Below the pieces are notes generated by a model. It was not told the DNA's origin and made no database searches. It saw nothing but the letters and a program-made list of their open reading frames with translations. Source: Limisphaerales bacterium (GTDB lineage: Bacteria; Verrucomicrobiota; Verrucomicrobiia; Limisphaerales; CAIMTB01). From it: a stretch of 64,000 nucleotides of DNA. A program made the translations under genes and the position numbers. Numbering within the stretch: position 1 is the first letter of the stretch; each line of letters starts with the position of its first letter. Positions 6,895 to 34,209 of this stretch are shown one piece after another. Location: the NCBI GenBank assembly GCA_050250555.1, contig JBFWOK010000004.1, forward strand, positions 17,526 to 81,525, read 5' to 3'.

Positions 6895-7025
6895 TCTTGA
6901 TCCACCATCGAGCCGTCCGTCAGATGGAGTCGGAACGGGACGAACGGCCGGGCTTGAAGCAGACCACGGAGGTACTTCGTGGTAAGCGTCATATTTTTCC
7001 CTGTGTGAACAACGTAAGGATCGAA

Positions 7026-9528: not shown

Positions 9529-9569
9529 GCCCGACCTCCCACTGCCGGATCCTCACCCCACGACACGCC

Positions 9570-18364: not shown

Positions 18365-18432
18365 CCGAATCGACCTCGATTCGATGCCCGGACCCCGTTC
18401 TCCCTCATTGCCCAAGAACTGTATTTCACCGC

Positions 18433-20922
18433 GTGAATGATTTATTTCATGCCGTGAACCCGATCCGACCGCGTTGGTTCGTCCGGAACCTGGAATCCGC
18501 CCGCAAGGTCCTGCCCGTGGCCCTCCCGCCGCATCCCCATCGCCGCAGCCGTGCCGCCAACGGACTCCGCCTGCTCGTCCTCCTTCCCCTCCTGCTCGCC
18601 GGCGCTCCACCCGCTCCCGCCGCCGCCGACCAGAACTTCCTCGGCCAACCCAACACCGCCCGCGCCCACCCGGCCGACACACCCACCGCGACCACTCCCC
18701 GAACCCGCCGGATCCTGTACAACCTCGACGGCGATTCCTGCATGACCCTCCGGGCCGGACGCACCGGACCCGGCCCGATCACCGCCGCCGATCTCACCAA
18801 CCTCGTCGCCGAAATCACCCGGCCCGGCAGCCAACTCGACACCGTTCTGGTCTGCGTCAACGCCCAGGTGATGTACTACCCCACCGCCGTGGGCACCCTT
18901 CGCGGCACCCGTTCCACCCCCGAGGAACGCGCCCGCTGGTCCTCCCACGAGCGCCAGCGCTTCGCCAATCTCGACGCCTTCTTCGCCCAGGGACTCGATC
19001 CCTACGCCGTTCTCTTCGCCGAAGCCCGGCGCTGCGGACTCGAGACTCTCCTCACGTTCCGCATGAACGACGCCCACGGGAATGATTTTCTCCGAACCGC
19101 GTTCTGGGAACGCCATCCCGGGTTCCGCCTCGGCAAAGGCGCCCTCGATTTCGCCCATGACGCGGTCCGCGACCATGTGTTCGAACTCATCCGGGAGACG
19201 GTCCGCCGCTACGATGTCGACGGCCTCGAACTGGACTTCCTGCGGTTCCCCACGTTCTTCAAGGCCGGCGACCCCGCGGAGAACAAAGCGAGAATGAACG
19301 GTCTCGTCCGCCGCGTCCGGGAGTTCCTCGACGCCGAAAGCGCCCGCCGCGGACGCCCGCTGGTGCTCGGAGTGCGCGCGCCCTCCGATTACGGTCGGAC
19401 CCGCCCGACCTACGCCCATTCCGTCGCCGCACCGAGAGCCTGCGATGTCGCCGAATGGACCCGAAGCGGCTGGATCGATTTCCTCACTGTCAGCGACTGG
19501 CTCTTCAACGGCGACACCCTCGACCTCGCCGACTGGCGCCGTCATGTGCCCGGAATCCCGATCTACGCCGCCATCCAGCCCGAAACCCGGCCCTCGTCGA
19601 ATCCGACCCGTTGCGAGCATTGCCTGGGCGCGGACGGATATCGCCTCGCCGCCCGCGAACGCTGGGCGGACGGCGCCGATGGCATCTACCTGTTCAATTT
19701 CTTCACCGCCCGCGAGTGGCCCGAACCCGCCGAACCGCCCTTCGAGGTGCTCTCCGAGATCGGCGAACCCCGCGGGATCACCGAACGCATCCCCATCCTC
19801 GGCTGGCACAGCATCCCCGAACGCGAGTTGTCCCTGGAACGGTTCCAGGAACTCGCCGGCATGGGCCTGACCCTCAGCCTCATGCACTACAGCCCCGAAG
19901 GAAACCTGAAGGCCCTCGACCTCGCCGCCCGGACCGGGGTCCGCCTTTTCATCGGCGATTCCCGATTCCGCCAACCCGGCCCCGAGCTGGACGAAGCCGT
20001 CCGCACCTACCGCCAACACCCCGCGCTCGCCGGGTACACACTCAAGGACGAACCCAGCCTCGCCGAGTTTCCAACCCTCGCCGCCGCCCGCGATGCGCTC
20101 GCCGCCGCCGACCCGGACCCGGCCCACGGGAGCTACGTGAACCTCTTTCCCACTTACGCCAGCCCCGCCCAACTCGGCTGCCCCACCTACCCGGAACACC
20201 TGCGCCGCTTCGTCCTCGAATTCCGCCCTCAGGTCCTGAGCTTCGATCACTACCCGATCCTCGACGGCGGTGCCGTCCGCCCCGATTACTACCAGAACCT
20301 CGAGTGGATCCGCCGCGCCGCCCTCGACGCCGGCGTGCCCTTCTGGGCCTTCGCCCTCGCCTGCCCCCACAAGCCCTATCCCACCCCCACCGCCGGTCAT
20401 GTCCGCCTCCAGGCCTGGAGCAACTTCGCCTACGGCGCCCGCGCCCTGCAGTACTTCACCTACTGGACTCCCAACCCGGGAACCTGGGACTTCCACGACG
20501 CCCCCATCCGCCTCGACGGCTCCCGCAGCCCGACCTACGACCTGCTCCGCGCCTTCAACCGGGACGTCCAGGCCTGCGCCGACGTCCTCCTCCGCAGCCG
20601 CGTGACCGCCGTCTTCCACACCGAACCCCTCCCCGCCGGCACCACCGCCGCGGATGCCGCCTGCCCCTTCCAAACCATCGAAGGCGGACCGGCGCTCGTC
20701 GGACTGCATGTCCTCCCCGACGACCGCCGCTATGCCCTCGTCGTCAACCGTTCCCCCACCGAACCCGCCACGCTTCGACTCACGCTTCGCGATGAGGTCC
20801 GGCGCGTTTCCTGGGAGCATCCCGTCGCCGGGGCGCGCCTCCACGAATCGACGAACCGCGTCGCCACCCTCGCCCTCGAACCCGGCGCCGCCGCCCTCCT
20901 CCGCATCCATCCCGCACCATGA
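18433..20922 (+). CDS. secreted two-domain glycoside-hydrolase-like protein (TIM-barrel-like modules)
   Basis: This is the real gene inside track ORF 17137..20922; the 5' part of that ORF overlaps the CRTAC1-like gene out of frame. Signal peptide RLLVLLPLLLAGAPPAPAAA. FRMNDAHGNDF...VDGLELDFLRFP resembles GH-like family 10 proteins. The C-terminal half (YTLKDEPS...FDHYPI) resembles GH42-type barrels. Candidate starts are GTG at 18433, 18454 or 18517. Confidence 0.55.
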   Translation: MNDLFHAVNPIRPRWFVRNLESARKVLPVALPPHPHRRSRAANGLRLLVLLPLLLAGAPPAPAAADQNFLGQPNTARAHPADTPTATTPRTRRILYNLDGDSCMTLRAGRTGPGPITAADLTNLVAEITRPGSQLDTVLVCVNAQVMYYPTAVGTLRGTRSTPEERARWSSHERQRFANLDAFFAQGLDPYAVLFAEARRCGLETLLTFRMNDAHGNDFLRTAFWERHPGFRLGKGALDFAHDAVRDHVFELIRETVRRYDVDGLELDFLRFPTFFKAGDPAENKARMNGLVRRVREFLDAESARRGRPLVLGVRAPSDYGRTRPTYAHSVAAPRACDVAEWTRSGWIDFLTVSDWLFNGDTLDLADWRRHVPGIPIYAAIQPETRPSSNPTRCEHCLGADGYRLAARERWADGADGIYLFNFFTAREWPEPAEPPFEVLSEIGEPRGITERIPILGWHSIPERELSLERFQELAGMGLTLSLMHYSPEGNLKALDLAARTGVRLFIGDSRFRQPGPELDEAVRTYRQHPALAGYTLKDEPSLAEFPTLAAARDALAAADPDPAHGSYVNLFPTYASPAQLGCPTYPEHLRRFVLEFRPQVLSFDHYPILDGGAVRPDYYQNLEWIRRAALDAGVPFWAFALACPHKPYPTPTAGHVRLQAWSNFAYGARALQYFTYWTPNPGTWDFHDAPIRLDGSRSPTYDLLRAFNRDVQACADVLLRSRVTAVFHTEPLPAGTTAADAACPFQTIEGGPALVGLHVLPDDRRYALVVNRSPTEPATLRLTLRDEVRRVSWEHPVAGARLHESTNRVATLALEPGAAALLRIHPAP

Positions 20923-21037: not shown

Positions 21038-21322
21038 ATGAGAACTACAATCGATTTGCCGGAGGATCTTCTGAGGCAGGCCAAGGCTCGGGCCGCTCTC
21101 GACGGGAAGAAGTTGAAGGACCTCCTCACCGTGTTCATTCAAGAAGGTCTTCGTAGACGCGATTCGAGCCGAACAGACGCACGCGGGAGATCGCTCGGAC
21201 GCCGATCTCCGCCGCCCGTGCTCGTTCCACGCCGCGGAGTCCCCATCCCGGCGGTTTCGCCCGACGCGCTCCGCCAACTGGAGGACCAGGAAGACGAAGC
21301 CCGACATGCGCGACCTGCTTGA
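21038..21322 (+). CDS. vapB: VapB-type antitoxin
   Basis: MRTTIDLPEDLLRQAKARAALDGKKLKDLLTVFIQEGL is a typical antitoxin N-terminus. The gene overlaps the downstream PIN gene by 17 nt. Confidence 0.65.
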   Translation: MRTTIDLPEDLLRQAKARAALDGKKLKDLLTVFIQEGLRRRDSSRTDARGRSLGRRSPPPVLVPRRGVPIPAVSPDALRQLEDQEDEARHARPA

Positions 21323-21734
21323 CTCCAGTGTGTGGCTCCCGCTCTCGGCCCCGGATCATGTCCACTACTCACGCGCCAGAGCGTACTGGACCAAAGAAGC
21401 GGACGAGGAACTCGCGTTTTGTCGAGTCACAGCGTTGGCTCTGCTCCGCCACCTGACCCATCCGCGAATCATGGGCGCGGCAGCTCTTGATGGCGCGGCC
21501 TCATGGACAGCGCTCGGGAAGTGGCTGGCCACGCCGCGCATCCATCTCATTCCGGAGCCGGCTGGAATCGACGAGTGGTTGCGTCGATGGAGCGTCCACC
21601 TGGATCTTCGAGGCGGCGCATGGACGGACGCGTACCTCGCCGCTTTCGCCATGGCCTCCGATTGCCGCCTGGTCGCATTCGACGCGGGATACAGCCGCTA
21701 CCCCGGACTTCGCTTCCTGCATCTCCAGCCATAG
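21306..21734 (+). CDS. vapC: PIN-domain toxin VapC
   Basis: LLDSSVWL (first acidic residue), FCRVTALALLRHLT, WTDAYLAAFA and LVAFDAGY are canonical PIN motifs. Confidence 0.8.
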   Translation: MRDLLDSSVWLPLSAPDHVHYSRARAYWTKEADEELAFCRVTALALLRHLTHPRIMGAAALDGAASWTALGKWLATPRIHLIPEPAGIDEWLRRWSVHLDLRGGAWTDAYLAAFAMASDCRLVAFDAGYSRYPGLRFLHLQP

Positions 21735-21841
21735 TTCAACCTCTGGTTCCGATTGAAATGGAAGATCGGCTCAATTCTGAGCCGGCAGCCTCACAATGGT
21801 CGCTTGTGGATGTTTTATACCCATTGTCTTTCACCGCACCG

Positions 21842-21930
21842 CCCTCGCCCTCGAACCCGGCGCCGCCGCCCTCCTCCGCATCCATCCCGCACCATGAACA
21901 ACAACCCACACGGGCCACCGCACCGTCGAC
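21842..21930. repeat. right copy of the ~89-bp direct repeat flanking the vapBC cassette
   Basis: See 20867-20955. This copy carries the functional ATG (21894) of the downstream gene, plus a dead copy of the upstream gene's 3' end (..ALEPGAAALLRIHPAP*). Confidence 0.9.
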
Positions 21931-23399
21931 CAGGACCCTTTGCCTCGGCGCTCGGCCTGTTCCTCTTCCTCCTGACACCCGTCCTCGAACCGCCCTCGTC
22001 CGCCCTTGCCGCGCCTCCCCCACTCCCCGCGCCCCGGATGACCTACCTCGACAACGGCAAGGTCCGCATCGGTATGGACCTCGCCCTCGGCGGCGCCGTC
22101 ACTTTCCTCTCCAGCCCCGACCACGCCGGCAACCTCATCAACAGCGCCGATCTCGGCCGCCAGATCCAGATGTCCCACTACTCCGGCCCCTGGCCCTTCG
22201 TCGCCGGAGACAAACAACCCGCCCCCCAATGGGCCGGCCTCGGCTGGAATCCGATCCAAACCGGCGACTGCCACCACAATCCCTCAACGGTCACCGACCA
22301 CCGCAACGACGGCCGCGAGCTCTACATCCGTTGCGTCCCCATGCAGTGGCCCCACGACAACGTCCCCGGCGACTGCGTCTTCGAAACCTGGACCACCCTC
22401 GACGGCCCCGTCGCCCGCCTGCGCTTCCGCTGCACCAACCGGCGCGCCGACACCACCCGCTACCGGCCCTGCCCCCAGGAACTCCCCGCCGTCTACACCA
22501 TCTCCCGCCTCTCCCGCCTTATGGCCTACACCGGCGACCAACCGTTCACCGGCGCCCCCCTCACCCACGTCCGCAACGACTGGAAACAACCCTGGCCCTG
22601 GACCCGCTTCACCGCCACCGAACGCTGGGCCGCCCTCGTCGATGACTCCGATTTCGGCCTCGGTGTCTTCAAGGACGACGGCGGTGAGTTCCACGGCGGC
22701 ATCCATGGCGAAGGCCGGTCCGACGACCCGAAACACGGCTCCACCGCCTACGTCGCCCCCATCCACCGCGAGAACTTCGATCACAACATCGTCTACGAAC
22801 ACCGCACCGACCTCATGGTCGGCCGCCTCGACGACATCCGACACCGGTTCAACGCCCTCGCCACCCGCACGCCCCCGGACTGGCGCTTCGACACCGACCG
22901 CCAGCACTGGACCCTCGTCGGGGCCACCGACGACGGCTTCCCCTGGAAGGGCGAGTGGCGCCTCCGCTTCGACACCCGGAAACCCCGCCTCGAAGGCCCC
23001 ACCCAATGCTGGCGCGCCGAACACGGCCCGATCCTCGAAATCGAGGCCGCCCGCCACGGTCGCGCCATCCAAGCCCGCGTGTTCTGGAAACGCCTCGACG
23101 ATGACGGGTTCGACGCCTCGAAGAGCCTCCCGTTCGAACTCCCCGCCGACGGCACCTTCCACACGCTCCGGGTGGACCTCGCCGTTTCCCCCGAATACCG
23201 CGGGCTCCTCACCGGCCTCGCCCTCGAACCCGTCGCCGATCATCCCCGGGGCCGGGCGGACGGCGAACTGATCCTCCGACGCATCACCCTGCGCGAACGC
23301 GATGCCCCGGCGCCCGCCGCGGCCCCGCGCGCGGCTACGCAGCCCCAGCCCCAGCCCCAGCCCCAGCTCACCCTACCCCTTCCGGCCCCCGGGGCATGA
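21894..23399 (+). CDS. secreted hypothetical protein with a C-terminal (PQ)n tail
   Basis: ATG at 21894 and signal peptide FASALGLFLFLLTPVLEP. The ORF is long, with normal composition. No domain was recognised. Confidence 0.7.
   Translation: MNNNPHGPPHRRPGPFASALGLFLFLLTPVLEPPSSALAAPPPLPAPRMTYLDNGKVRIGMDLALGGAVTFLSSPDHAGNLINSADLGRQIQMSHYSGPWPFVAGDKQPAPQWAGLGWNPIQTGDCHHNPSTVTDHRNDGRELYIRCVPMQWPHDNVPGDCVFETWTTLDGPVARLRFRCTNRRADTTRYRPCPQELPAVYTISRLSRLMAYTGDQPFTGAPLTHVRNDWKQPWPWTRFTATERWAALVDDSDFGLGVFKDDGGEFHGGIHGEGRSDDPKHGSTAYVAPIHRENFDHNIVYEHRTDLMVGRLDDIRHRFNALATRTPPDWRFDTDRQHWTLVGATDDGFPWKGEWRLRFDTRKPRLEGPTQCWRAEHGPILEIEAARHGRAIQARVFWKRLDDDGFDASKSLPFELPADGTFHTLRVDLAVSPEYRGLLTGLALEPVADHPRGRADGELILRRITLRERDAPAPAAAPRAATQPQPQPQPQLTLPLPAPGA
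23340..23369 (+). repeat. hexanucleotide repeat (cagccc) x4, plus one imperfect unit
   Basis: Encodes QPQPQPQPQL at the C-terminus of the preceding CDS. Confidence 0.9.
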
Positions 23400-23780
23400 C
23401 AGGCCAGCACTTACGAGGTGTCACGCCAGCTCCCACCCCGGTCCACGGGGCGGCCATGAGGTGTGGAATACGCACCTCCGTACCCCGTTGTTCATTTTCT
23501 GGCCCGAGAATCCCAAAGGGATTTCGCCCCCAAGCCTAGGGTTGAATCGCACAGCGGGCTTACCCTGAGTTACGCATCATCCGAGCCACCAACACCAACG
23601 GTGTTGCGTCCGACGGCCATAATCCCGATGGAGTTGCAGGAACTCCGAGGCCTATTCGACGGATCCGTCCTGGCCCGAATAGAGGTACCCAGTCCCATTG
23701 TCTCCTGCTATCGCACCTCCAAATCAACCACCATGCCCATGTCGGAAGTCGCATTTCCGAGGCATGTCACTCGAATCGAT

Positions 23781-24263
23781 TTACCGCCGTTCCTCGGGGA
23801 AATCCAAGACTTCCAGACCCTCGGCCCGAGCGATCTTCGACTGCCGGTGGTCGAAGGTGAGAAACTGTTCGACGCCAAGGTGAAGGGCCGCCGCCACGTG
23901 AAGCACATCGCTCGCTCGAGCGCCGAGACGTTGGGTATGCTCTGCGGACAATTGAAGTGATCGAACGACGACCGCTTCCACATCCATCGCCACGCTTGTC
24001 AGCCCTCGCCGTCGCAGCAATTGGGCAAGACGAGCAACAGATGCGTCCATCTCTTCCTGGATGCGCTTACGTTCGCGTGCTGGCCGGACCTGGGACTCGT
24101 GGAAGGCGCGCTGTCGCAGGGCGTTCTCGACCTCGAGCTGATGAACCCATAGGTAAGGAAGAATGGGACGGCCAGCGTGCCGGTACGCGCCGATCGCCGC
24201 CTCGCTGTCGGCCTCACCCACGACCAACCGTAAAATGAAACTACTGTCGGCGTATGCGGTCAT
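23781..24263 (-). CDS. vapC: PIN-domain toxin (VapC family)
   Basis: MTAYADSSFILRLV..., SDVLHVAAALHLG, FLTFDHRQ. The ATG overlaps the antitoxin stop (ATGA). Confidence 0.8.
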   Translation of the reverse strand: MTAYADSSFILRLVVGEADSEAAIGAYRHAGRPILPYLWVHQLEVENALRQRAFHESQVRPARERKRIQEEMDASVARLAQLLRRRGLTSVAMDVEAVVVRSLQLSAEHTQRLGARASDVLHVAAALHLGVEQFLTFDHRQSKIARAEGLEVLDFPEERR

Positions 24264-24502
24264 CGTCGCGATTCGTCCAGGAGACGGGCAGCGCTGACGT
24301 TGCTGCAAGGCGCGGAAAGCGTCGCATCGAGGATCTCGTCGATGACCCGATCACGGCTCGGGTCGGATTCGACGGCCTCGGCAGCGCGAAGGACCCAGAG
24401 GGGCTCCTTGGCATCGGTGATTACGACCGTCTCACCCGCGCGGGTCCACTGCTTCACCTGACCAGGATCGCGCAGGAGGCGGCGAAGCGGGATCGTCTTC
24501 AT
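24260..24502 (-). CDS. Phd/YefM-like antitoxin
   Basis: MKTIPLRRLLRDPGQVKQWTRAGETVVITDAKEPLWVLR. Lies immediately upstream of the PIN gene and is translationally coupled to it. Confidence 0.6.
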   Translation of the reverse strand: MKTIPLRRLLRDPGQVKQWTRAGETVVITDAKEPLWVLRAAEAVESDPSRDRVIDEILDATLSAPCSNVSAARLLDESRR

Positions 24503-24612: not shown

Positions 24613-24689
24613 GCGGCCGTAGCTCAATTGGCTAGAGCTTCTGACTTCGGATCAGAAGGTTGCAGGTTCGAGCCCTGCCGGCCGTACCA
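24613..24689 (+). tRNA. tRNA-Arg (anticodon UCG), with CCA encoded
   Basis: Cloverleaf folded by hand. Acceptor gcggccg/cggccgt (G1-U72 wobble). D arm gctc-aattggcta-gagc. Anticodon arm tctga-ctTCGga-tcaga. Variable loop aggtt. T arm gcagg-ttcgagc-cctgc. Discriminator a, then cca. Confidence 0.9.
24667..24689 (+). repeat. proximal att-like repeat (tRNA-Arg 3' end)
   Basis: ttcgagccctgccggccgtacca matches 28752-28774 at 22 of 23 positions. Confidence 0.9.
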
Positions 24690-24890
24690 TTCAGGATCAA
24701 CGTGTTACACCGATTCCTCAAGGGCCCATGGAGGAACGCTTCGTCAAAACTTGGCCACTTTCTGCGGGAATCGTGCGGCGCTGCCGGCTCTTGCCGCCCT
24801 GCATCCCAGGTCGGTTTGTCCCTTGACCGATAGGGGCGCCGGAATCCCGAAGAGGAATCCAACATCTAGACCCCGAACTCCCGAGGTTTC

Positions 24891-25424
24891 ATGCACGCCC
24901 TCAAGTCCGCAGCCGTTGCTGCACTCCTCGTTCTAGCCTTTCCCACCGGAGTCCATGCCCAAGACCCCGTGGCCAACGGCCTCGTGGCGTATTACCCGTT
25001 CAACGGGAGCGCGAACGACGAGAGCGGGAAGGGCAACCACGGCGCGATCATTGGGTACGACTGGAAATTCTCCTTCGACCGATTTGGCGGTGCGAACAGC
25101 CTTTACCTCAACACGACCTCGAACCCCACTTCGACTTTTGACGGAACCTACGTCGTCGTCCCCAGAAGTGCCTCCCTCGATTTCACCGCCGACTTCACTC
25201 TGAGCGTCTGGGTTAATCTGCCGAGCGGACTCATTTACCACGTCCACAACCTGATTTCCAACGGCCGCGATGACAGTGGAGCCAACCTTCGAATCGTGTC
25301 CCATGCGGCAACCGACGGACGAGATTACTTTCAGTATATCCACTCGCGCCGCCGGCAACACTCCAAGGCATTCCGCAAAATGCGGTGCCGGGATCCAAGG
25401 TCTGGCCCAGTTGACGTGACGTGA
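24891..25424 (+). pseudogene. LamG/concanavalin-A-like lectin domain protein, apparently truncated
   Basis: Signal peptide, then LVAYYPFNGSANDESGKGNHG...SLDFTADFTLSVWV (typical LamG N-terminal half). The sequence then degenerates (..HSRRRQHSKAFRKMRCRD*). About 420 nt of noncoding sequence follows. Confidence 0.45.
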
Positions 25425-25844
25425 CGCGACGCTCGGGTGTCTTTCCGCCCGCTCCCGTCCCTTCAACTTCTCCATTCAAGACCCCAAGTCCGAGGAGTCC
25501 CGCGGGCAAGGGTTCCCTTTTCGTGCCCCGACCGTCCCGGCACCTCCCAACCCCCAACCTCCAGCGTAGAACGACGGGCCCCACCGTGGGGCGCTCCTCA
25601 CGTGCAAGCCAGCATTCGCTTCCAGGTCATCGGGGCGATCCGATCCTTGCCGAGGTGCGGTCGGCAATTCACCGATTCCACGCAGCAACCACCAAGTTTC
25701 CAGGGCGTTTAACGTTTTTGACCTTCCGGCTCCGTAAGTTGCACGAGCATAGCGCATTGGAAGTATTTGACGCCACGCGATTCATCTGATGCCGCGCCGC
25801 AGTTCGGCATTGCTGCAGCTCTGCAATTCAGTAATGCTGCCGGG

Positions 25845-26066
25845 GTGAGCACTGTGGTCCAGATCAACCAGCGTGGGACGTTCACGATCCCCAAGGAACT
25901 TCGGGAGAAGTATGGCTTGGATCGTCAGGCGATTCTCGAGGAAACGCCCGACGGTCTCATCCTGCGTCCGGCAGCCACCTACCCGGTCGAGATCTATTCC
26001 GCTGAGCGTTTGGCCGAGTTCCAGAGGATGAACGAGGACGGTCTCCAAGGATTCGCCCTCAAGTGA
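25845..26066 (+). CDS. AbrB/MazE/SpoVT-family antitoxin
   Basis: VQINQRGTFTIPKELREKYGL is a swapped-hairpin motif. The stop overlaps the GTG of the PIN gene (GTGA). The GTG start at 25845 is tentative. Confidence 0.65.
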   Translation: MSTVVQINQRGTFTIPKELREKYGLDRQAILEETPDGLILRPAATYPVEIYSAERLAEFQRMNEDGLQGFALK

Positions 26067-26491
26067 AGGTCTTCCTCGACGCCAACGTGTTGTTCTCCGC
26101 CGCGTTGCCAGTAAGTCGGATGGGCGAATTTGTACGCTGCATGAGGAAGCATGCCGAACTGGCGAGCAGCCCCGCCGCCGTGGATGAAGCCCTGCGGAAT
26201 GTGGAACGAAAGCTCACCGACGCCACGGTGGTGGCCCGCAATCTTCAGGAACTACTGAAGGGCGTCAGCCTTTCCTCATCGGTGGTCGAATTGCCGGGCG
26301 TTGTACTGGTGGAAAAAGACCAACACATTTTGGGAGCCGCGGTGGCCTCCGCATGCTCGCACCTCCTGACCGGGGACCAGCGTCATTTCCAACACCTCTT
26401 CGGAAACGTCGTGGGTGGCGTACGGTTAGTCCACGCTGCCCAGCTGGCTGAGGAACTGGGGTTCCAACGGTCGCAACCCAACAACGGCTGA
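26063..26491 (+). CDS. PIN-domain toxin
   Basis: MKVFLDANVLFSAAL..., DQHILGAAVASACSHLLTGDQRHF. Confidence 0.75.
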   Translation: MKVFLDANVLFSAALPVSRMGEFVRCMRKHAELASSPAAVDEALRNVERKLTDATVVARNLQELLKGVSLSSSVVELPGVVLVEKDQHILGAAVASACSHLLTGDQRHFQHLFGNVVGGVRLVHAAQLAEELGFQRSQPNNG

Positions 26492-26721
26492 AACGCCCAC
26501 GACCATCCTCGGTCACCGGGCGGGAGCAAGCCGCGGTTCTGACTCATCATGCACCGGGCTTCTCAATTCCCGATGTAAGCTTCCATTGAAAACGCCCTGC
26601 GATCCGGGGCGACAGTCTGCGAGGAATCCAAGGATACGACAAACCTTCGGGCTCCGAGCCCCTTCAGATCGACCGGCCGAATGGGCGAGGAGTCGTTTGT
26701 TTGTTCGCACCTCGCCTGAGC

Positions 26722-27171
26722 TCAAACGCGCCCCGCCCGCATCGGAACTACAAAGGCACTTGGGATTCCTGTGTCCAACGTTGCGAGCTCAGACTGGTGC
26801 GCCTTCGCGAGAGCCAGCAGGTGCGCGTCCGTCGCTTGACTGGCACTTCGGCACCACTCGGGCCAGACCGTCGCCCATTGGTCGTCGGGCAGGAATTGGT
26901 GAACGGACCCCAGACTCGTCAGCATACCCGCCAGGGTTGTCCCCGCATCCGCGGGAGTGACCTGTCACTCGCACGGGACGCGCCCAATCCGTCTCGGTCG
27001 GTCCGCCTCGGGCTGCGCCCGCCTCCGCAGGTATTCCGAGACCGACAACTTCTGGCGCCGTGCCAACGGTGAACAACTCGGACGCCGGGCGATCAAACCC
27101 AATTCTTCGTCCCAGTGCTCGGCGAATCCTTGAACCACCGACAGCGACCACGACCACCCGATAGCCCCCAA
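26722..27171 (-). pseudogene. degenerate toxin-antitoxin locus: an RHH-like antitoxin ORF and a VapC C-terminal fragment in the same frame, separated by a TGA
   Basis: ..ARRQKLSVSEYLRRRAQ.. is like an RHH helix. It ends at the TGA at 26965-26967. The same frame continues as QVTPADAG...FLPDDQWATVWPEW...TDAHLLALAKAHQSELATLDTG, which is the C-terminal half of a PIN domain. The N-terminal acidic motif is absent. Confidence 0.4.
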
Positions 27172-27318
27172 TCGGCTTGCAGCGGCTCCCAGCCCCCTTC
27201 GCGCCCATCAAGCTCCTCGTGATTTCGGTTCTTCGGAGAATTGGGACCGCATCCGAAGCGGCATTCAAACATGGCACCAGATCTTTCGCGGCCGAAATGG
27301 TAAAAGGGCCCGGCCTCG

Positions 27319-28620
27319 TTAGCCCTTCAGTCCTTTGCTGGGCCATTGTCGGTCCGGCTGGAGGGTGGCGCTGTTATTCCAGCCTTGCACCATCTCATGC
27401 CACTTGGTGTAGGGCTGGATGGCCACCGAGTTGCTGAAGTGGCCCCAGAATCTCTTCAAACCCAAGTAGATGATGTTCTCCCCTTCAAGCCCGGCAGCGG
27501 TGCCGTCCCACCCGTCGTTCTTGATGAAACCGCCGTCACCGGGCACCCAGTCCTTATCGTCGCCGGTTGTACCGGAGACCTGCTTTGCCCCGCCTCCGCC
27601 CTCGATGGTGACCTTGGAAGCCGCGGCGCAACCAATCCTGTACTCCTCCGGGTGCTCGTTGATGTCCCGGTGAGCCTCGTCCCATTCCACGCCCTCCTTC
27701 TTCCAGAACTTCCCGCGCTCCTTGTCGAGCTCCCAATACTTGGGGTTCATCTTGAAGTCGTGGCGTCCCCCGGTGAAGGAGTACTGCTTCTTTCCGGCGA
27801 AATCGACCACGCCTCGGCGGGCCTCCATGTGGCGCATGAGGTGGTACTCCGCCGTACTCCCATTGTCGCCTTGAAGCCGAAAGATCCTCGGCGAGTGGAA
27901 CAAAGATGTGAACACTTCGAGACTGAGGTCCTTCGTTCGGTCGAGATGGGGGTAGCTGTAGATATCCCCCGCCTTGATGAGAAATTCGTGGAAGCTCGGG
28001 AGATCGGAATTGGGCGGCATCTGGACCTTCCGCTGAACCACTCCTTGGGACGCGCCCCCGGCCAGGACCTGATGCAGTCGGTCCTCAAGGCCTTCGGTTG
28101 AGGCGGATTCCCCGCCATCGTGGGTGTTCGTGTCCGAGATGTCCTGGGCGGCCTGTTGTCCCAATCGATCCGCCTCGGCCTCGAGTGCAGGATCGTCGTC
28201 GATGGCGCCGCCCATGGCCTGGGCTGTGGCGCGAACCCGGCCGGAGGCTTGCTGGGTTACGTGGGCCAGTTCGTGGCCCAGCAGCGCCCGACCGCTCACC
28301 GTGTGGGGCGCATACTCGCCCGGGGCGAAATGAACGTCGACACCCCGCGTGTACGCGCGGGCTCCGATGCTCGCGGCGCGCTGGTCCTGATGGACCCGAA
28401 CGGCGGAGAAATCCCACCCGAAGGAATGCTCCATTCCGGCCCGGACCCCTTCCGGCAGGCAAGCTCCCGGGGAGGACGGGGGTTGGGTCGCCAGAGATTG
28501 CCACAATGCGTTGACGGGGTGTCGTGCGGGGTCCAACTCGCCACGGGACGCCTGAGCACGTCCGACCGCCGAGGCGGTTACCGCTGCCTTGGACCGCGGT
28601 GCATCGAAGGCCTGGCTCAT
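27319..28620 (-). CDS. DUF4157 (zincin-like) N-terminal domain polymorphic-toxin-type protein with an unassigned C-terminal domain
   Basis: FGWDFSAVRVHQDQRAASIGARAYTRGVDVHFAPGEYAPHTVSGRALLGHELAHVTQQ is the DUF4157 signature and includes HExxH. This is followed by ALEAEADRLG and a ~250-aa Lys/Trp-rich C-terminal domain (..EEYRIGCAAASKV..KRFWGHFS..). Confidence 0.8.
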   Translation of the reverse strand: MSQAFDAPRSKAAVTASAVGRAQASRGELDPARHPVNALWQSLATQPPSSPGACLPEGVRAGMEHSFGWDFSAVRVHQDQRAASIGARAYTRGVDVHFAPGEYAPHTVSGRALLGHELAHVTQQASGRVRATAQAMGGAIDDDPALEAEADRLGQQAAQDISDTNTHDGGESASTEGLEDRLHQVLAGGASQGVVQRKVQMPPNSDLPSFHEFLIKAGDIYSYPHLDRTKDLSLEVFTSLFHSPRIFRLQGDNGSTAEYHLMRHMEARRGVVDFAGKKQYSFTGGRHDFKMNPKYWELDKERGKFWKKEGVEWDEAHRDINEHPEEYRIGCAAASKVTIEGGGGAKQVSGTTGDDKDWVPGDGGFIKNDGWDGTAAGLEGENIIYLGLKRFWGHFSNSVAIQPYTKWHEMVQGWNNSATLQPDRQWPSKGLKG

Positions 28621-28751
28621 AAATGTGAGCAAAGCGATTCCGGCGGGAGAAGCAAGGGCGGGAACAGACCCGCAAGGGTCAACGGGGGCACTTCAAAACG
28701 AATCGAGACTTCTCGTTGCGCTGCCGCGCCGCGACCCAAAGTCCCAATTCA

Positions 28752-28774
28752 TTCGAGCCCTGCCGGCCGCACCA
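28752..28774 (+). repeat. distal att-like repeat (copy of the tRNA-Arg 3' end)
   Basis: ttcgagccctgccggccgcacca. The single difference (C for T) would restore a G1-C72 pair in the tRNA. Confidence 0.9.
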
Positions 28775-28881: not shown

Positions 28882-29397
28882 CTATGGCTGCTGGCCGACC
28901 ACCGGCATCTCGGAGGCGATCGCCACGTCGATGAACAGTCCGATCTGGTTCTCGATCTGGAGGAACTGCCCCGCCTGCAGCGGCGAAAGCGCCTTCTCGA
29001 TCTTGGCGTGGTACTGCTCGAGCAACCGGAGTCGCCGGCGCTGCCCGCTGAACCAGCGCTTGGCGATGTCCTTGGCCTTCGCGTCGTCCAAGGCGCCCCG
29101 CCCGTGCGACTGAACGAAATCGCGGATCAATTCCGCCCGGGTCACCGCCAAATCGCCCAACGCCTTCTCGTACGCCCGGTAGATGGGCCAGAACTTCTTC
29201 GCGTCCTCGTCGGACAGCTTCATGATCGAGTTGACTAGGTCGACCTTGAAGGAATTGAAATCCGATCGGAGAACTTGGAGGTAGTTGTGAAGGTTGGAGT
29301 CGGTCGACTCCGCGGCGGTGGTGGTGGCCGCGCGAGGGCTCGGATGGGCGCCAAGGGTTGCCAGAATCAGGACAGTAAGCGCTCGAAAAGCTTTCAT
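28882..29397 (-). CDS. secreted helical hypothetical protein
   Basis: ATG at 29397 and signal peptide MKAFRALTVLILATLGA. Helical, Lys/Glu-rich mature part (..SDEDAKKFWPIYRAYEKAL..). Confidence 0.6.
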   Translation of the reverse strand: MKAFRALTVLILATLGAHPSPRAATTTAAESTDSNLHNYLQVLRSDFNSFKVDLVNSIMKLSDEDAKKFWPIYRAYEKALGDLAVTRAELIRDFVQSHGRGALDDAKAKDIAKRWFSGQRRRLRLLEQYHAKIEKALSPLQAGQFLQIENQIGLFIDVAIASEMPVVGQQP

Positions 29398-29446: not shown

Positions 29447-30028
29447 CTAGTTGAGGTCCTTGTCCTTCCAGTACTTCGTGCCCGCGACCGTGGCCTGGAG
29501 CGCGACGCCGGTGTCGGTGATCTGGTAGATCTCGAACACATTGCCGCCGGTGTCGGCCCCCGCCTCCTTGGCGACCGCCGCGCCCTTTTCGCCGGCCTTC
29601 GCCGTCGCGTCGGCCTCGCCGCCAAACTGCCAACCACTCTCGACGAATCGGCGCATGACGTCCGCGTTCTTGAAAATGAACACGACGCTCAGATCCTTCG
29701 CTCCCAGGCCGACGCCACCGCCCAAGGAGCCCATGGCCATGAAGGTCTCCTTGCCGGCCTTGTCCACCACCATGCCGTACCCGTGGCCGGTGCTGAGCAG
29801 GAAGAGGTTCATGTTCTTGTTGTTGAACGTGCCGTAACCAAACGCGCTTTCGATCTTCGCCCGGGCCTCCGGGTGCGCCGCGTACAGCTTCTCGAGAATC
29901 TGGTCCCGCTGCTTGCGGACCTCGGTCCGCTTCTCGTCGGCGCTTCCACCTTTCGGACCAAAGAGCGCCGCCGACGCGGAAAGCGCCAGCGCGACGGTGA
30001 GGAGGGTGATGGGAATGGTCTTTTTCAT
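29447..30028 (-). CDS. secreted SYLF/Ysc84-like (DUF500) lipid-binding domain protein
   Basis: Signal peptide MKKTIPITLLTVALALSASA. GSLGGGVGLGAKDLSVVFIFKNADVMRRFVESGWQFGGEADATA resembles the SYLF Gly-rich core. Confidence 0.5.
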   Translation of the reverse strand: MKKTIPITLLTVALALSASAALFGPKGGSADEKRTEVRKQRDQILEKLYAAHPEARAKIESAFGYGTFNNKNMNLFLLSTGHGYGMVVDKAGKETFMAMGSLGGGVGLGAKDLSVVFIFKNADVMRRFVESGWQFGGEADATAKAGEKGAAVAKEAGADTGGNVFEIYQITDTGVALQATVAGTKYWKDKDLN

Positions 30029-30328
30029 GGTATTCCTGATACGGACCGCTGGCCGCACGCTAACAGATCGGATCCGCGATGGAAGGCCGGCCTTGTGGGG
30101 GGGATCGGGCATGTCCCGAACCTGCGTGGCGGATCGGATGCCTACGGGTGCCGTGCCCCGGACCGCTCCCTCAGGGGATTGGAAACCCGCGCGACCTTGG
30201 GACATCGACATGCCGGCACCTCGGACCTCCGCTCAGAAGGAGGGATTCGACGAACGGGGTGACTTGCACGAAGCCAAGCGTTTCACGGATCCTTTGACCG
30301 GCTCATTGCCAGAAGAGAGAGTGACGCG

Positions 30329-30895
30329 ATGAAACCGGCGACCGGCGACTCAACTCCCGATCGTGGTCCGACTGATGCGGAAGGTCTGCTCGGGCAGGTT
30401 TACGGTGAATTGAGGCGGCTCGCCGCGTACCGCCTCGCGTCGGAGCCACCGGGCCAGACACTCCAAGCTACGGCCCTGGTTCATGAGGTCTGGCTGAAGC
30501 TCGGCGCCGGAAGGGAATACCCGTGGCGGGATCGGAACCACTTCCTCGCCGCCGCCTCCGAGGCCATGCGCCGCATCCTGATCGACCAGGCGCGACGACG
30601 GAAGGCAGCCCGGCACGGCGGCGGTTGGTTGCGCCTCGACTCCCCGGAACTCGATGAACTGGGAGCCGCCGAAGGTCCCGTGGATCATGATGCCCGGCTC
30701 GAACGGCTCGACGACCTGATTGGCAAACTGGCCCAGGGTCATCCCGAAAAGGCCGCCCTCGTACGACTGCGTTTCTACACCGGACTCACAATCGAGGAAG
30801 CCGCCTCGGTGATCGGAATCTCACCGGCCACGGCCAAGCGTCATTGGGCCTTCTCGCGGGCCTGGCTCTTTCGGGAACTCACTCGGGGAGCCTGA
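30329..30895 (+). CDS. ECF-type RNA polymerase sigma factor (TIGR02999-like, kinase-associated type)
   Basis: LLGQVYGELRRLAAYRL...LQATALVHEVWLKL...RNHFLAAASEAMRRILID is region 2. Region 4 HTH: GLTIEEAASVIGISPATAKRHW. Confidence 0.85.
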   Translation: MKPATGDSTPDRGPTDAEGLLGQVYGELRRLAAYRLASEPPGQTLQATALVHEVWLKLGAGREYPWRDRNHFLAAASEAMRRILIDQARRRKAARHGGGWLRLDSPELDELGAAEGPVDHDARLERLDDLIGKLAQGHPEKAALVRLRFYTGLTIEEAASVIGISPATAKRHWAFSRAWLFRELTRGA

Positions 30896-33372
30896 ACCAG
30901 ATAGAGAAACGCGAATCCGGCCACGGCGAAACCGGTGATCCCGAGTGCGAAGATGAACGGCACGCGGGGTATCAGGCCAAGATCCACCAGCAGATAACTG
31001 CCGAGCGCCAGGCCCGCCAGCGCCCCGACGAGCATCCGCCAACGCCCGCGCCAGGCTCCCAGGGCCAGGAAGACGATCGAGGCGCCGAGATAAAGGGCGA
31101 CGTCGACCCGCGCGAGGGGATCGTCCCGGTTCGCCGAGGCATTCATGAAGAGCGCTCCCTCGACGTGAAGGAGGCTTGCGACTTCGAGCAGCCGCGACAC
31201 CCGGCGAAGATCCAGGCTGGAGGAACGCTCGGCGACGAGCATGAGAATCAGGAAGACCACTCCATTGAACGCGAACGAGAGCGCCTGCAGTCGGTCCTGG
31301 GTCAGGTATTCTCCCGCCGGGAAACCCAGCAACAGCAGGGTCGGCCCGTCCTCCGCCATCACATCCAAGGATCCCAGCAACGCCAGGATCGCCACGAGAT
31401 GGAACGGAAATGACCAGCGCACCCGGCCCAACCGCTCGAGCCCCAGCCCGACAAACTCCATCGCCACGAGGGGCAAACAACCGAGCGCCTGCCGGTGCGT
31501 TGGCCAGTCCAGCCAACCCAGATTCAGCAACACGGCCCCGTAGGTTCCCGAGCCGAGCACGGCCGTTGTCCACGCGAAACCCGTCATCCTCAATCGCGCG
31601 AGCGCAGCCGCCGAGAGAAGCGTGGCGGCGAAGCACGAGGCAAGGATCTGCTGGTTGGTGAAGACGTCCCCAAGAAGTTGCTCCATTCCCGAAACCGGCA
31701 CAGAAAACCACCCGAGTTCCCTGAACACCGTGAGCGTCGCCGGGACCATTGAAAGGGATGCCGCGGCGAGAAACGAGGCCGACGCCAGCGACTCCCGACG
31801 CCGGTCCGCCAAGAGTCCTACGGCCAACAAACCCACCGATGCACCCGCCGGCGCCAACCATCGCCATGGCGGCCCCACCTCGGCGTGCGCCAGCCACACC
31901 AGGAGAGCCGCGGCCACCACCACAATCCAGGTCCCCGTGTAAAGCACCGTCTGAGCCCAGGTCAGACGCCGCGCATCGATGATCCAATGATCTTCATCCG
32001 CCAGCAGCCGCCGGTGGAGCAACTGCAATTGATCCCGTTCGTCCCGGGAAATGATGCCCTGCGCCTCCCAGTTCGCCGCCTCGGTCGAATACTCGCTGAC
32101 CCGACGCCTGAGAAGGTCGTCGTAGAGCCGGGGTTTGAGACGCACCGGCTCCCCGGCCAGAAACCGCCCCAATTCGAGAACCAGCGTCGCCGCCGTTGGA
32201 CGGTCGTCCGGATTCCACGCCATGCAGGCCAGCACGAGAGCCTGCAGATCCTCGGGAACCCCCACCGCCACATCCCGAAGAAACGGTGGAGCCGTTGTCG
32301 CAATCGCTTCCAGAACCTCTCCCACGCCACCGCCCCGAAATGGCGCCCTGCCCGTCAGCACCTTGAACATCAGGCTGCCCAGCGAGAACACATCCGAGGC
32401 GGTCGTCAGCGCTCTCCCAAGGACCTGTTCGGGCGAGGCGTAGAGCGGAGTACCCTCGAATCCCCGACCGGAGCGCCCCGCTTCGCCAAGGGACAACGCC
32501 AGCCCGAAATCAAGGATCCGCGGCCGCATTTCGGGTCCGACGAGCACATTGTCCGGCTTGAGGTCGCGGTGAACCAGTCCCCGGGCATGGGCCGCGGCAA
32601 GCCCGCGCGCCACCTCGCGAAGGAGCCGGGCCTTCTGCCCGAAGTGCAGATGCTCCGCGAATCGGTCGATCGGAAATCCTTCGACATACTCCATCACGAT
32701 TGCCGGCGGCTCCGCTTCGTCGAGCACCGAGAAAATCGTGACCACCGCCGGATCGTCGAGGCCCGCGGCGTTCCGCGCCTCTTCGAGCACCCTGCGACGC
32801 GCGACGGCGTCCCCCGCCCGTTGTCGGAGCACCTTGATCGCCACCCTCCGCCCAAGTTTCTCGTCCTGCGCGGCGTAGACGATTCCCAGCGCACCCGATC
32901 CAAACCTTCTCTCGATCCGAAATCCGGGGAGGCGGACCACCGGCTCGTCCTCGCCCGAATCCTCCGCCCGCGACGCACCGGCCATGGCACGAACCCGGAG
33001 GGCCGCTTCAATCCGTTCGCAGGCTTCGGTCCGGTCGGCCCGATGCGACCTCCCGAGCCGGGCCGCCGCGGCCATGGGCTGGCCCGCCGAGAGCGCCGCG
33101 AGGCAGTCCATGGCGCACGCGGCCGTCTCCTCCGGGTCCGGGCTCGGATCCTCGGCACCCGTGCCCAACCCGTGGCCGGCCTGACCGCGTTCCACCGCCG
33201 GGTCCAGGAATCCGCCCGCCGCATCATGCGCCGCGATCAATGAAACCACGCTCCCCAACACCGCCTCGTCACCCCGGCACTCGCGCGCGAGAAAGGAGTC
33301 GCGAGCCGGACCCGCGGGCAACTGCAGAGCCCGCACGAACAGAGTCTCGACCGAGGGTGATTCCATGCCCAT
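30841..33372 (-). CDS. Ser/Thr protein kinase with a large polytopic membrane C-terminal domain
   Basis: VAIKVL, HRDLKPDNVLV, DFGLA and SPEQ motifs, followed by about 10 or more hydrophobic helices. ATG at 33372 or 33366. Confidence 0.9.
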   Translation of the reverse strand: MGMESPSVETLFVRALQLPAGPARDSFLARECRGDEAVLGSVVSLIAAHDAAGGFLDPAVERGQAGHGLGTGAEDPSPDPEETAACAMDCLAALSAGQPMAAAARLGRSHRADRTEACERIEAALRVRAMAGASRAEDSGEDEPVVRLPGFRIERRFGSGALGIVYAAQDEKLGRRVAIKVLRQRAGDAVARRRVLEEARNAAGLDDPAVVTIFSVLDEAEPPAIVMEYVEGFPIDRFAEHLHFGQKARLLREVARGLAAAHARGLVHRDLKPDNVLVGPEMRPRILDFGLALSLGEAGRSGRGFEGTPLYASPEQVLGRALTTASDVFSLGSLMFKVLTGRAPFRGGGVGEVLEAIATTAPPFLRDVAVGVPEDLQALVLACMAWNPDDRPTAATLVLELGRFLAGEPVRLKPRLYDDLLRRRVSEYSTEAANWEAQGIISRDERDQLQLLHRRLLADEDHWIIDARRLTWAQTVLYTGTWIVVVAAALLVWLAHAEVGPPWRWLAPAGASVGLLAVGLLADRRRESLASASFLAAASLSMVPATLTVFRELGWFSVPVSGMEQLLGDVFTNQQILASCFAATLLSAAALARLRMTGFAWTTAVLGSGTYGAVLLNLGWLDWPTHRQALGCLPLVAMEFVGLGLERLGRVRWSFPFHLVAILALLGSLDVMAEDGPTLLLLGFPAGEYLTQDRLQALSFAFNGVVFLILMLVAERSSSLDLRRVSRLLEVASLLHVEGALFMNASANRDDPLARVDVALYLGASIVFLALGAWRGRWRMLVGALAGLALGSYLLVDLGLIPRVPFIFALGITGFAVAGFAFLYLVQAPRVSSRKSQAREKAQ

Positions 33373-33585
33373 GACGTCGGGAGTTTCCGGGCTGTCTCTG
33401 CCCCGCGTGAACCGGCGCGGCGAGAAAAATCCCATCGACCACGCCCGCCTCGCCACCCCAGCCCACCAGGCCACCTTGACCGACCGGCCGGTTCGACGGA
33501 CCGACGACGACCCCACCCGGCAAACTTTCGTGAGCCAATTCCCGCCGGATTCTCGCCTACAACATCGAAAGGACACGAAACGACG

Positions 33586-34209
33586 ATGAAAACCCAACAC
33601 ACCCATCAATCCACCTCACCCCTCAATCGAATTGGACGGGCGATCGCCCTGGCGGGGCTCGCCGTGGCCCTGGCGGGTTGCGATATCGCGCGGTCCCGCC
33701 AGGTGGTCGGTCGAAAGCCCGCCACGCTGGATTCGCAGGAACTCGAAGGCACCTGGCGCGACGCCGAAGGCCGCTCGTATTTCCTGCGCGTGACCGACCC
33801 GGCCGCCGCCCACCTCGAACTCGCCACCGTCGAAACCCGTTCCGACGCCTTCGAACTCACGCGAACGGAGATCTTCCTGCGGGAGCAGGATGACGTCATT
33901 CTCGCAAGCCTTCGCGGCACGGCACCCGAACCGGAGGGAGACTTCGCCTTTGGCCGGCTGGTCGTCACCGAGGGCGCGCTCGTCCTTCATCTCGCGACCG
34001 CTCCGGCGATCCGGAAACTCGCGCTCGACGGCACCATCGGCGCGGTGATCACCACGAACTCCAATTCGGAGAACGGCCCGAGATACGACGTGATCGTGAC
34101 CAACGGCTTCGACCGCCTCGCCGGCGCGCTGGCCGCCCCCACCGGACATCAGTACCTCGACATGGCCAATCCGGTCCTGCTGATGCGACAGAAACCCGGA
34201 CACGACTGA
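33586..34209 (+). CDS. lipoprotein, function unknown
   Basis: Lipobox LAVALAGC after a signal sequence. Confidence 0.6.
   Translation: MKTQHTHQSTSPLNRIGRAIALAGLAVALAGCDIARSRQVVGRKPATLDSQELEGTWRDAEGRSYFLRVTDPAAAHLELATVETRSDAFELTRTEIFLREQDDVILASLRGTAPEPEGDFAFGRLVVTEGALVLHLATAPAIRKLALDGTIGAVITTNSNSENGPRYDVIVTNGFDRLAGALAAPTGHQYLDMANPVLLMRQKPGHD

Follow-up and report, generated by a model that had tools for sequence, protein, structure and literature searches.

A Tgl-type transglutaminase-like domain behind DUF4157 in an orphan gene of a Limisphaerales bacterium, a candidate effector of contractile injection systems

The stretch of DNA considered here, referred to throughout as the window, covers 64,000 nucleotides of contig JBFWOK010000004.1 (positions 17,526 to 81,525; assembly GCA_050250555.1) from a Limisphaerales bacterium of the phylum Verrucomicrobiota. 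On its minus strand, at 27319..28620, lies a complete gene (stop codon 27319-27321), recognized from the list of open reading frames (ORFs) and from Pfam matches, which encodes a 433-aa protein that joins a DUF4157 domain to a C-terminal domain resembling the bacterial transglutaminase Tgl. The protein is a member of the DUF4157-led toxin class, ordinary but well defined, with a Tgl-type payload and orphan status. The gene is real and under purifying selection. Homologues of its product are spread over many phyla, and an orthologue in a second Verrucomicrobiota metagenome-assembled genome (MAG; CALNYA01, locus L008) encodes a 94 % identical protein, with a ratio of nonsynonymous to synonymous substitution rates (dN/dS) of 0.26 over the whole gene and 0.19 over the Tgl-like (TGL) domain. 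The GC content at third codon positions (GC3) is 0.78 in the frame of the gene, compared with 0.72-0.85 for other genes of the window. The ATG is the likely start codon, because it is kept in the L008 copy (93 % nucleotide identity) and the alternative TTG at 28632 is not. A scan for sigma-70 promoters upstream of the gene found none and terminator-like sites occurred at chance level, although the scan was uninformative. Membership of an anti-phage defence system was also considered and set aside, as PADLOC returned no match for the gene or four neighbours.

The C-terminal domain (residues 198-433; 27322..28029, minus strand) is assigned as Tgl-type by Pfam, by profile comparison with the Protein Data Bank (PDB) and by Foldseek. 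It scores 46.2 bits against the Pfam family TGL (PF20085), that of the Bacillus spore-coat protein-glutamine gamma-glutamyltransferase, for which the gathering score is 23.7. Single-sequence searches give partial matches to NCBIfam PRK03187 and to PDB entry 7C9J, the Tgl of G. stearothermophilus, and a profile of 12 family members finds 7C9J at an E value of 4e-16 and Bacillus subtilis Tgl (4P8I) at 1e-10. An AlphaFold2 (AF2) model of the domain alone has a predicted local distance difference test score (pLDDT) of 81 and a predicted template-modelling score (pTM) of 0.81. With that model, Foldseek returns 7C9J (E 2.5e-8, template-modelling (TM) score 0.65) and 4P8I (E 1.1e-7, TM 0.62) at a probability of 1.0 over 211-249 columns. 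The next matches are NlpC/P60 hydrolases at E >0.1 and TM scores of ~0.3; for this model, as for that of the whole protein, the confident matches are Tgl structures only. An earlier note on this DNA had called the domain unassigned and had proposed HHpred or HMMER, together with AlphaFold and Foldseek, as a check. That description no longer holds, and the domain, having a Tgl family match, is not novel.

In the HMMER alignment to B. subtilis Tgl, Cys331 (codon 27628-27630, minus strand, as are the two that follow) corresponds to the catalytic Cys116, Glu381 (27478-27480) to Glu187 and His394 (27439-27441) to His200. The guess of a papain- or transglutaminase-like Cys...His pair, made from the sequence at the outset, was well placed, since the motifs RIGCAAAS and FWGHFS align exactly with Cys116 and His200. 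The same alignment gives equivalents for residues at the mouths of the Tgl tunnel, namely W358 for Trp149, F365 for Tyr171, N382 for Asn188 and F282 for Phe69; four of the six tunnel residues are kept, and Trp184 and Arg185 are replaced. The roles of the catalytic and tunnel residues of Tgl come from mutagenesis (PMC6490927). Across 155 representatives of the family, the Cys is present in 154, the Glu in 136 (with Gln in 15 more), the His in 132, the Trp in 144 and the Asn in 151. The domain identities and the conservation of the active site are direct observations, and the chemistry and enzymatic activity of the Tgl-like domain are predictions from sequence. Because Glu115, Trp184 and Arg185 of Tgl are not conserved, the alignments place the domain in a divergent Tgl-like subfamily rather than among Tgl orthologues.

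Ahead of this domain the protein consists of a disordered N-terminal domain, DUF4157 and a linker, in that order, and the AF2 model of the whole protein has a pLDDT of 76. Residues 1-54 (28459..28620, minus strand) are predicted to be disordered, with pLDDT <50 over residues 1-35 and neither a hydrophobic signal peptide nor a Sec signal there. By analogy with the cargo of the AlgoCIS system, residues 1-54 are a candidate loading sequence for an extracellular contractile injection system (eCIS). The DUF4157 domain, also known as eCIS_core or PVC-metallopeptidase, occupies residues 55-127 (28240..28458, minus strand), which match positions 2-78 of the 79 in PF13699 at 96.2 bits against a cut-off of 22 (E 1.3e-27). 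Its HExxH motif is intact as HELAH (residues 116-120; 28261-28275, coordinates verified by translation), and H116, E117 and H120 are invariant in the family alignment, A1. The protein is of the DUF4157-led polymorphic-toxin type, as the earlier note had proposed. The following helix (AF2 helix 144-165; 28126..28191, minus strand) carries the motif LEAEAD (residues 146-151, with E147 and E149) and is probably the third zinc-ligand helix. Of the 120 closest DUF4157 relatives, 119 have a motif of the form [LYF]ExEA[DE] at a distance of 20-39 residues C-terminal to HExxH. The placement of LEAEAD after HExxH fits the published picture of the PVC-metallopeptidase, with two His on one helix and Glu on the next or third helix (Zhang 2012, PMC3482391).

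The linker (residues 166-197; 28030..28125, minus strand) is modelled at low confidence (pLDDT <50) and ends in a VQRK junction motif, of which Q196 and R197 are near-invariant among DUF4157-TGL proteins. Counts of amino acid composition agree with the earlier view that a Lys/Trp-rich C-terminal domain begins at the VVQRKV junction. As a general processing motif of DUF4157 proteins VQRK was rejected, for it occurs in 17 of 120 DUF4157 relatives where the chance fraction is 0.115; it is not present in RHS-TGL proteins. The motif VNPLWQxLA of the N-terminal domain, tried in a paralogue test as a signature common to other DUF4157 cargo, proved to be confined to the TGL clade. As a separate observation, a clade of eCIS-embedded Bacteroidota proteins (P0011, P0013, P0014 and others; A1 columns 1-100) has the ExEAD helix 110-210 residues N-terminal to HExxH, and in P0011, P0013, P0014 and their clade this displaced helix adjoins extra QRK motifs and a CxHCEEEE motif. 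These sequences suggest that the DUF4157 metallopeptidase is permuted or split in that clade.

The lower GC content of the 3' part of the gene had been taken as the mark of a swapped toxin cassette. The raw drop is real, from 0.69 over residues 1-190 to 0.60 over residues 191-433, but the inference of a foreign cassette did not survive. The drop sits wholly in the first (0.76 to 0.57) and second (0.56 to 0.42) codon positions, and GC3 changes from 0.75 to 0.80, values that are uniform and host-like (0.72-0.85 for window genes), which is the uniform composition named beforehand as refuting the claim. The drop arises because an Ala/Arg/Gly-rich leader gives way to an enzyme domain rich in Lys, Trp, Phe, Tyr and Asn, with Lys at 7.9 % in the C-terminal half vs 0.5 % in the N-terminal half and Trp at 3.7 % vs 1.0 %. 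The associated idea of a leader shared with variable payloads does hold for the pan-genome, on grounds other than the GC reason given.

The wider family provides much of the context for the gene. With the C-terminal domain as query, an exhaustive HMMER search produced 256 clusters at 50 % identity, and in the proteins listed by that search the TGL domain lies at or near the C-terminus. DUF4157 is upstream of it in eight of ten long representatives. P0082 has RHS repeats by Pfam; P0124 has no RHS Pfam match at E ≤0.01 but the same RHS-core-type end, and in both of them TGL begins directly behind a conserved DPxGL-type core end. The domain is thereby found on different scaffolds, DUF4157 of at least two subtypes as well as RHS repeats, which is the hallmark of a polymorphic toxin. 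DUF4157-TGL genes of Bacteroidota and of other phyla are found immediately behind genes for a CIS tape-measure protein (CIS_TMP) and an AAA+ ATPase. This is the arrangement in a JGI contig, in two Bacteroidota MAGs and in Chitinophaga, where it applies to the first of two copies. More DUF4157 toxins (e.g. Ntox1) and a Tle1-like lipase gene come after the eCIS-embedded DUF4157-TGL genes. Based on TMP and AAA profiles built for this analysis, eCIS genes are present in eight of 22 distinct genome loci.

An ORF of ~92 aa directly follows the TGL gene at 13 loci, which come from one archaeon and from members of several phyla. Examples are at 11302-11583 in L007, 11292-11570 in L030 and 9674-9973 in L006 (Chitinophaga sp. 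GbtcB8), where the TGL gene spans 8421-9662, and further ones are in L014, L015, L017-L022, L025 and L027. The encoded family has the motifs I.W...Y.v.G...G, GG and LPF..R..EL and no Pfam match; those of its small members that are encoded in eCIS loci lack a signal peptide. In L032, a 150-aa ORF (12337-12789) begins 2 nt after the RHS-TGL gene, where an immunity gene would be expected, has a hydrophobic leader and weakly matches the profile of the ~92-aa family (14.8 bits). That small ORFs of this kind accompany TGL on both delivery scaffolds points to cognate proteins for immunity or inhibition, with a chaperone role as the alternative. More broadly, and only tentatively, Tgl-type domains may form a toxin module widely transferred on eCIS and RHS scaffolds across at least ten phyla, perhaps with the ~92-aa proteins as their own inhibitor or immunity family; the window clade would then be an offshoot without partner and eCIS linkage, perhaps one that targets non-bacteria or is kept inactive by its own DUF4157.

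Among known systems, the closest in fold is Tgl itself (B. subtilis 4P8I/4PA5, G. stearothermophilus 7C9J; PF20085), which the payload resembles across its entire ~240 aa and with which it shares the motifs NxxYW, DW, GD..(Y/F).KN, GEN and (F/W)(A/G)H. Tgl is the smallest known transglutaminase, active without processing, a self-directed cross-linker with an NlpC/P60 catalytic core (PMC6490927). However, identity to Tgl is only ~17-21 %, Glu115 is exchanged for Gly/Ala in the window family, and Trp184/Arg185 are exchanged for Leu/Glu within an 'EGEN' motif. Whereas Tgl is a stand-alone sporulation enzyme of Firmicutes, the members of the window family are C-terminal modules behind DUF4157 or RHS, their hosts are Gram-negative phyla plus one archaeon, and many of their loci carry the dedicated ~92-aa partner ORF. 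In the literature found, PF20085 is described only as a spore-coat enzyme; public databases already tag homologues with both PF13699 and PF20085.

The closest functional precedent is EAT14 of Chitinophaga rupis (Danov 2024, PMC11297309), which likewise combines a DUF4157 N-terminus with a transglutaminase-fold toxin and is toxic to E. coli and yeast in dependence on the catalytic Cys of a Cys-Asp-His triad (PMC11297309). The payload of EAT14 is of another type, however, namely Transglut_prok (PF09017; Streptomyces/Kutzneria type, Cys-Asp-His triad, model 5M6Q), with a LysM domain in addition, and its gene adjoins its eCIS operon, whereas the window gene has no eCIS nearby. Membership of the EAT14/Transglut_prok group was rejected, as PF09017 gave no match at E up to 1 and 5M6Q and microbial transglutaminase (MTG) structures were missing from the top Foldseek matches. 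In layout, the protein agrees with Cgo1 and Cgo2, two proteins carried as cargo by AlgoCIS and made up of a disordered N-terminal domain, a central DUF4157 and a variable C-terminal domain; these fill the inner tube lumen, and their loading needs the N-terminal domain (Xu 2022, PMC8894135; PROCIS preprint 2026). The Bacteroidota DUF4157-TGL genes also share the position of the AlgoCIS cargo after an AAA+ gene, unlike the window gene, which is outside any eCIS cluster. Zhang 2012 (PMC3482391) had already catalogued Tox-TGase fused to the PVC-metallopeptidase, among polymorphic toxins whose immunity genes are often missing. As in the window protein, a constant N-terminal PVC-metallopeptidase (equivalent to DUF4157) is there followed by a papain-fold transglutaminase, although Tox-TGase has a classical, AvrPphE-like Cys-His-Asp core and the window payload is a Cys-Glu enzyme of the Tgl/NlpC-P60 type. 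The RHS toxins P0082 and P0124 bear the same TGL-type domain at their C-terminal tip, whereas the window protein lacks RHS repeats and an adjacent small ORF. DUF4157 is regarded as a core or marker domain of eCIS located N-terminal to toxins, many of which have no immunity genes (Geller 2021; Zhang 2012). Approximately half of predicted eCIS toxins carry DUF4157, mostly without an annotated effector domain, and of the known eCIS-associated toxins (EATs), 88 % are encoded no more than ten genes from an eCIS operon and ~12 % farther away.

The genomic setting of the gene is a decayed tRNA-integrated genomic island of 4.1 kb (24690..28751), delimited by direct repeats, GC content and Pfam matches, including those to six-frame segments. 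On the left is a tRNA-Arg(TCG) gene (24613..24689, plus strand; ARAGORN), the 3' 23 nt of which (24667-24689) form the left direct-repeat copy. An attR-like boundary is on the right, where a second copy of the tRNA 3' end (28752..28774, plus strand) is identical at 22 of 23 positions and lies 54 bp past a conserved gene block. These two are the only matches to the repeat with ≤3 mismatches on either strand of the window. Between them are a LamG-like fragment (24891-25424), a MazE/AbrB-PIN_3 toxin-antitoxin pair (25767-26491, plus strand; MazE/AbrB-like ORF 25767-26066), a PIN fragment (~26725-26964, minus strand) and, at the distal end, the DUF4157-TGL gene. The GC content of the island is 0.616, compared with 0.665 for the rest of the window, and it falls within the lowest-GC stretch of the window (4-kb minimum of 0.608 at 23501). 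No integrase or recombinase family was detected in six-frame segments of 24650-27420. Within 6 kb flanking the tRNA there are four PIN-domain genes or fragments, at 21306-21734 (plus), 23781-24502 (minus), 25767-26491 (plus) and ~26725-26964 (minus). Two of the PIN genes have small upstream antitoxin-like ORFs (24260-24502, with no Pfam match, and 25767-26066), making up a VapBC-type cluster.

The conserved block within the island is 1.43 kb long (27271..28698, minus strand) and consists of the gene with 78 bp upstream and 48 bp downstream. When the 20.7 kb of L008 were compared by blastn with the whole window, the block was the single match (1,433 bp, 93 % nucleotide identity). Repeats at its edges were sought as well, and none is common to the window and L008 copies. 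Identity to the DUF4157 core of the window protein is 58-67 % for DUF4157 proteins devoid of TGL, 57-68 % for its own TGL clade and 41-57 % for other TGL clades; the closest cores without TGL (58-67 %) carry other C-termini, GNAT domains or none, and many TGL proteins of other clades have the ExEAD helix N-terminal to HExxH and not after it. The gene therefore arrived by horizontal transfer, and module shuffling is real, given the RHS fusions, the discordant relatives of the N- and C-terminal modules, the tRNA-flanked island and the single-gene block.

Related loci have features of their own. The L008 orthologue is flanked by a 394-aa insertion sequence (IS)/transposase-like ORF (6488-7672, minus) and a pair resembling a ribbon-helix-helix (RHH) antitoxin and MazF (11191-11795, plus), with two tRNA-Leu(TAG) copies 7-8 kb upstream, in what is another variable region. 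In L001, the DUF4157-TGL gene for P0002 adjoins tRNA-Thr (11732-11807, minus), with no tRNA-derived repeat around it. Between that gene and tRNA-Thr are a perfect 21-bp inverted repeat (11311-11331/11561-11581) and a nested second one, enclosing ~230 bp, which could be a structured RNA or an element similar to a miniature inverted-repeat transposable element (MITE).

Other genes of the window include Lon, an ABC transporter, a sigma-54 activator, a histidine kinase and an extracytoplasmic function (ECF) sigma factor with a Ser/Thr kinase. Two genes directly upstream of the toxin gene share its strand and are outside the island. One is for a 170-aa secreted protein without a Pfam match (28882-29394, minus), the other for a 254-aa protein that is lipoprotein-like and weakly matches Ysc84 (29447-30211, minus); neither could be linked to the toxin gene. 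The ECF sigma factor gene (PF07638; 30329-30895, plus) is convergent with a 922-aa ORF (30841-33609, minus), their 3' ends overlapping by 55 bp, and the latter, by reading of its sequence alone, resembles a membrane Ser/Thr protein kinase. Three large ORFs with coding-type GC3, at 17137-20922 (plus; 1261 aa), 21753-23399 (plus; 548 aa) and 57178-60099 (minus; 973 aa), have no Pfam match at E up to 1e-4, and the first two, which are just upstream of the tRNA and toxin-antitoxin region, have no PADLOC match either.

The explanation favoured here, with moderate confidence, regards the gene product as an orphan effector belonging to the DUF4157 class of contractile-injection-system toxins, whose Tgl-type payload would perform Cys331-dependent acyl transfer on target glutamines after delivery by a system encoded elsewhere. 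In this scheme the protein would be loaded through its N-terminus into a particle of eCIS type whose genes are elsewhere in the genome, or might be released by another route, and it would then be delivered into a foreign cell. There, Cys331, aided by Glu381 and with His394 placed at the exit of a Tgl-like tunnel, would form a thioester with protein glutamine side chains, to be resolved by lysine (cross-link), an amine or water (deamidation), with damage to the target protein as the outcome. Processing or release of the payload close to the conserved VQRK junction may be the task of DUF4157. The gene itself, acquired horizontally, now resides at the far end of the decayed island at tRNA-Arg. 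The toxin reading draws on the presence of TGL at the tips of RHS proteins and behind eCIS TMP/AAA+ genes, on the Cgo1/Cgo2 layout, on the toxicity of EAT14 and on the fusion recorded by Zhang 2012, and the dN/dS of 0.19 in the TGL domain argues that function is retained. The family contexts, island and purifying selection are observed; we infer the enzymatic activity, toxicity, delivery route and target.

Several findings weigh against this explanation. The PF20085 match falls in two partial stretches of the domain. At the position of Glu115, replacement of which by Ala (E115A) abolishes the activity of B. subtilis Tgl in vitro (PMC6490927), the window protein has Gly330, and the 155 representatives have Ala, Gly or Ser but never Glu; Trp184 and Arg185 are L378 and E379. 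As the earlier note had observed, there are no eCIS, type VI secretion system (T6SS), RHS or other delivery genes among the ORFs of the window (Pfam, TMP/AAA profiles). No such delivery gene occurs within 10 kb of the five closest homologues, either, so a delivery route is unsupported for the window clade. The MAGs that contain the closest relatives, with domains 55-94 % identical to that of the window protein, carry the labels Verrucomicrobiota, Bryobacterales, Planctomycetota, Alphaproteobacteria and Longimicrobiaceae. The ~92-aa partner profile finds nothing at E up to 10 in a six-frame translation of the window, and neither the partner nor the ORF behind RHS-TGL in L032 has a homologue in the window or the other orphan loci (L008, L009/L001, L010/L004, L011 and L031). 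No immunity ORF follows the gene, in agreement with the earlier observation, and for an antibacterial toxin such a lack would be unexpected. The one candidate put forward, the first ~60 codons of ORF 26789..27346, was discarded. That ORF has a non-coding codon pattern (GC at the three codon positions 0.68/0.64/0.59) and no Pfam match, and its conservation in L008 is limited to 25 codons overlapping or abutting the gene, homology ending 48 bp past the stop codon. Overall, the earlier reading of the locus is partly supported, and the main uncertainties concern the delivery route, the chemistry (with Glu115 missing, either transamidation or hydrolysis) and what the lack of a partner ORF means in this clade.

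An effector with the same role but another chemistry, as an NlpC/P60- or papain-kind hydrolase acting as a cell-wall amidase or endopeptidase or as a protease, is unlikely. Tgl does have an NlpC/P60 catalytic core, NlpC/P60 enzymes are the next structural neighbours, and the Glu115 needed for transferase activity in vitro is not kept. A periplasmic target would be consistent with the lipoprotein-like hydrophobic leader of the L032 ORF behind RHS-TGL, and the authors of the EAT14 study could not exclude protease activity of that transglutaminase-like toxin (PMC11297309). Yet the similarity to Tgl is far stronger (E 1e-8 vs >0.1; TM 0.62-0.65 vs ~0.3), residues at both tunnel mouths (Trp149, Tyr171, Asn188, Phe69 and His200) are kept family-wide, and the small partners in eCIS loci lack a signal peptide, all of which speaks against a hydrolase.

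It is equally improbable that the window clade has been domesticated, having lost eCIS linkage and partner to become a stand-alone enzyme that modifies proteins of its own producer, e.g. by cross-linking them in particular circumstances; Tgl is likewise self-directed. The window gene and its five closest homologues are located among housekeeping genes, without eCIS genes or a shared neighbour (within 3 kb, the six orphan loci have nothing in common except an antisense artefact of the gene itself), the ~92-aa partner is missing only from some clades, that of the window included, and the gene is under purifying selection. But the full cargo layout of disordered N-terminal domain, DUF4157 and linker, needless for a domesticated enzyme, is kept, and the gene acts as a mobile single-gene cassette on islands near toxin-antitoxin modules and tRNA genes. 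Moreover, PVC/eCIS toxins are commonly without adjacent immunity genes (Geller 2021; Zhang 2012) and often encoded away from the eCIS locus, as are the ~12 % of known EATs that are more than ten genes distant. A reading of the gene as a decaying passenger, left on a dead island and without current function, is very improbable. The island, without an integrase, does hold LamG and PIN fragments, and no sigma-70-like promoter was found upstream, but the ORF is intact in two lineages 7 % apart in nucleotides, with dN/dS of 0.26 (0.19 in TGL), 78 bp upstream are conserved along with the gene, and the catalytic Cys, Glu and His and four tunnel residues are retained.

It is chiefly among DUF4157-led toxins that unknown eCIS payloads are to be found. 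One payload family is now tied to an enzyme fold that is defined, and as its active site has been mapped, the mechanism of the Tgl-like payload is directly testable. For annotation, the locus teaches that a GC drop in a high-GC gene can be purely an effect of amino acid composition, and that repeats of tRNA 3' ends together with breaks in cross-genome synteny are better evidence of transfer than GC content. A diversity of Tgl-like domains, perhaps accompanied by a small protein that inhibits them naturally, could be of interest for protein cross-linking biotechnology and for the design of engineered eCIS payloads. The wider family, in which a Tgl-like toxin module occurs on eCIS and RHS scaffolds together with a small partner that is conserved, may outweigh the locus itself in value.

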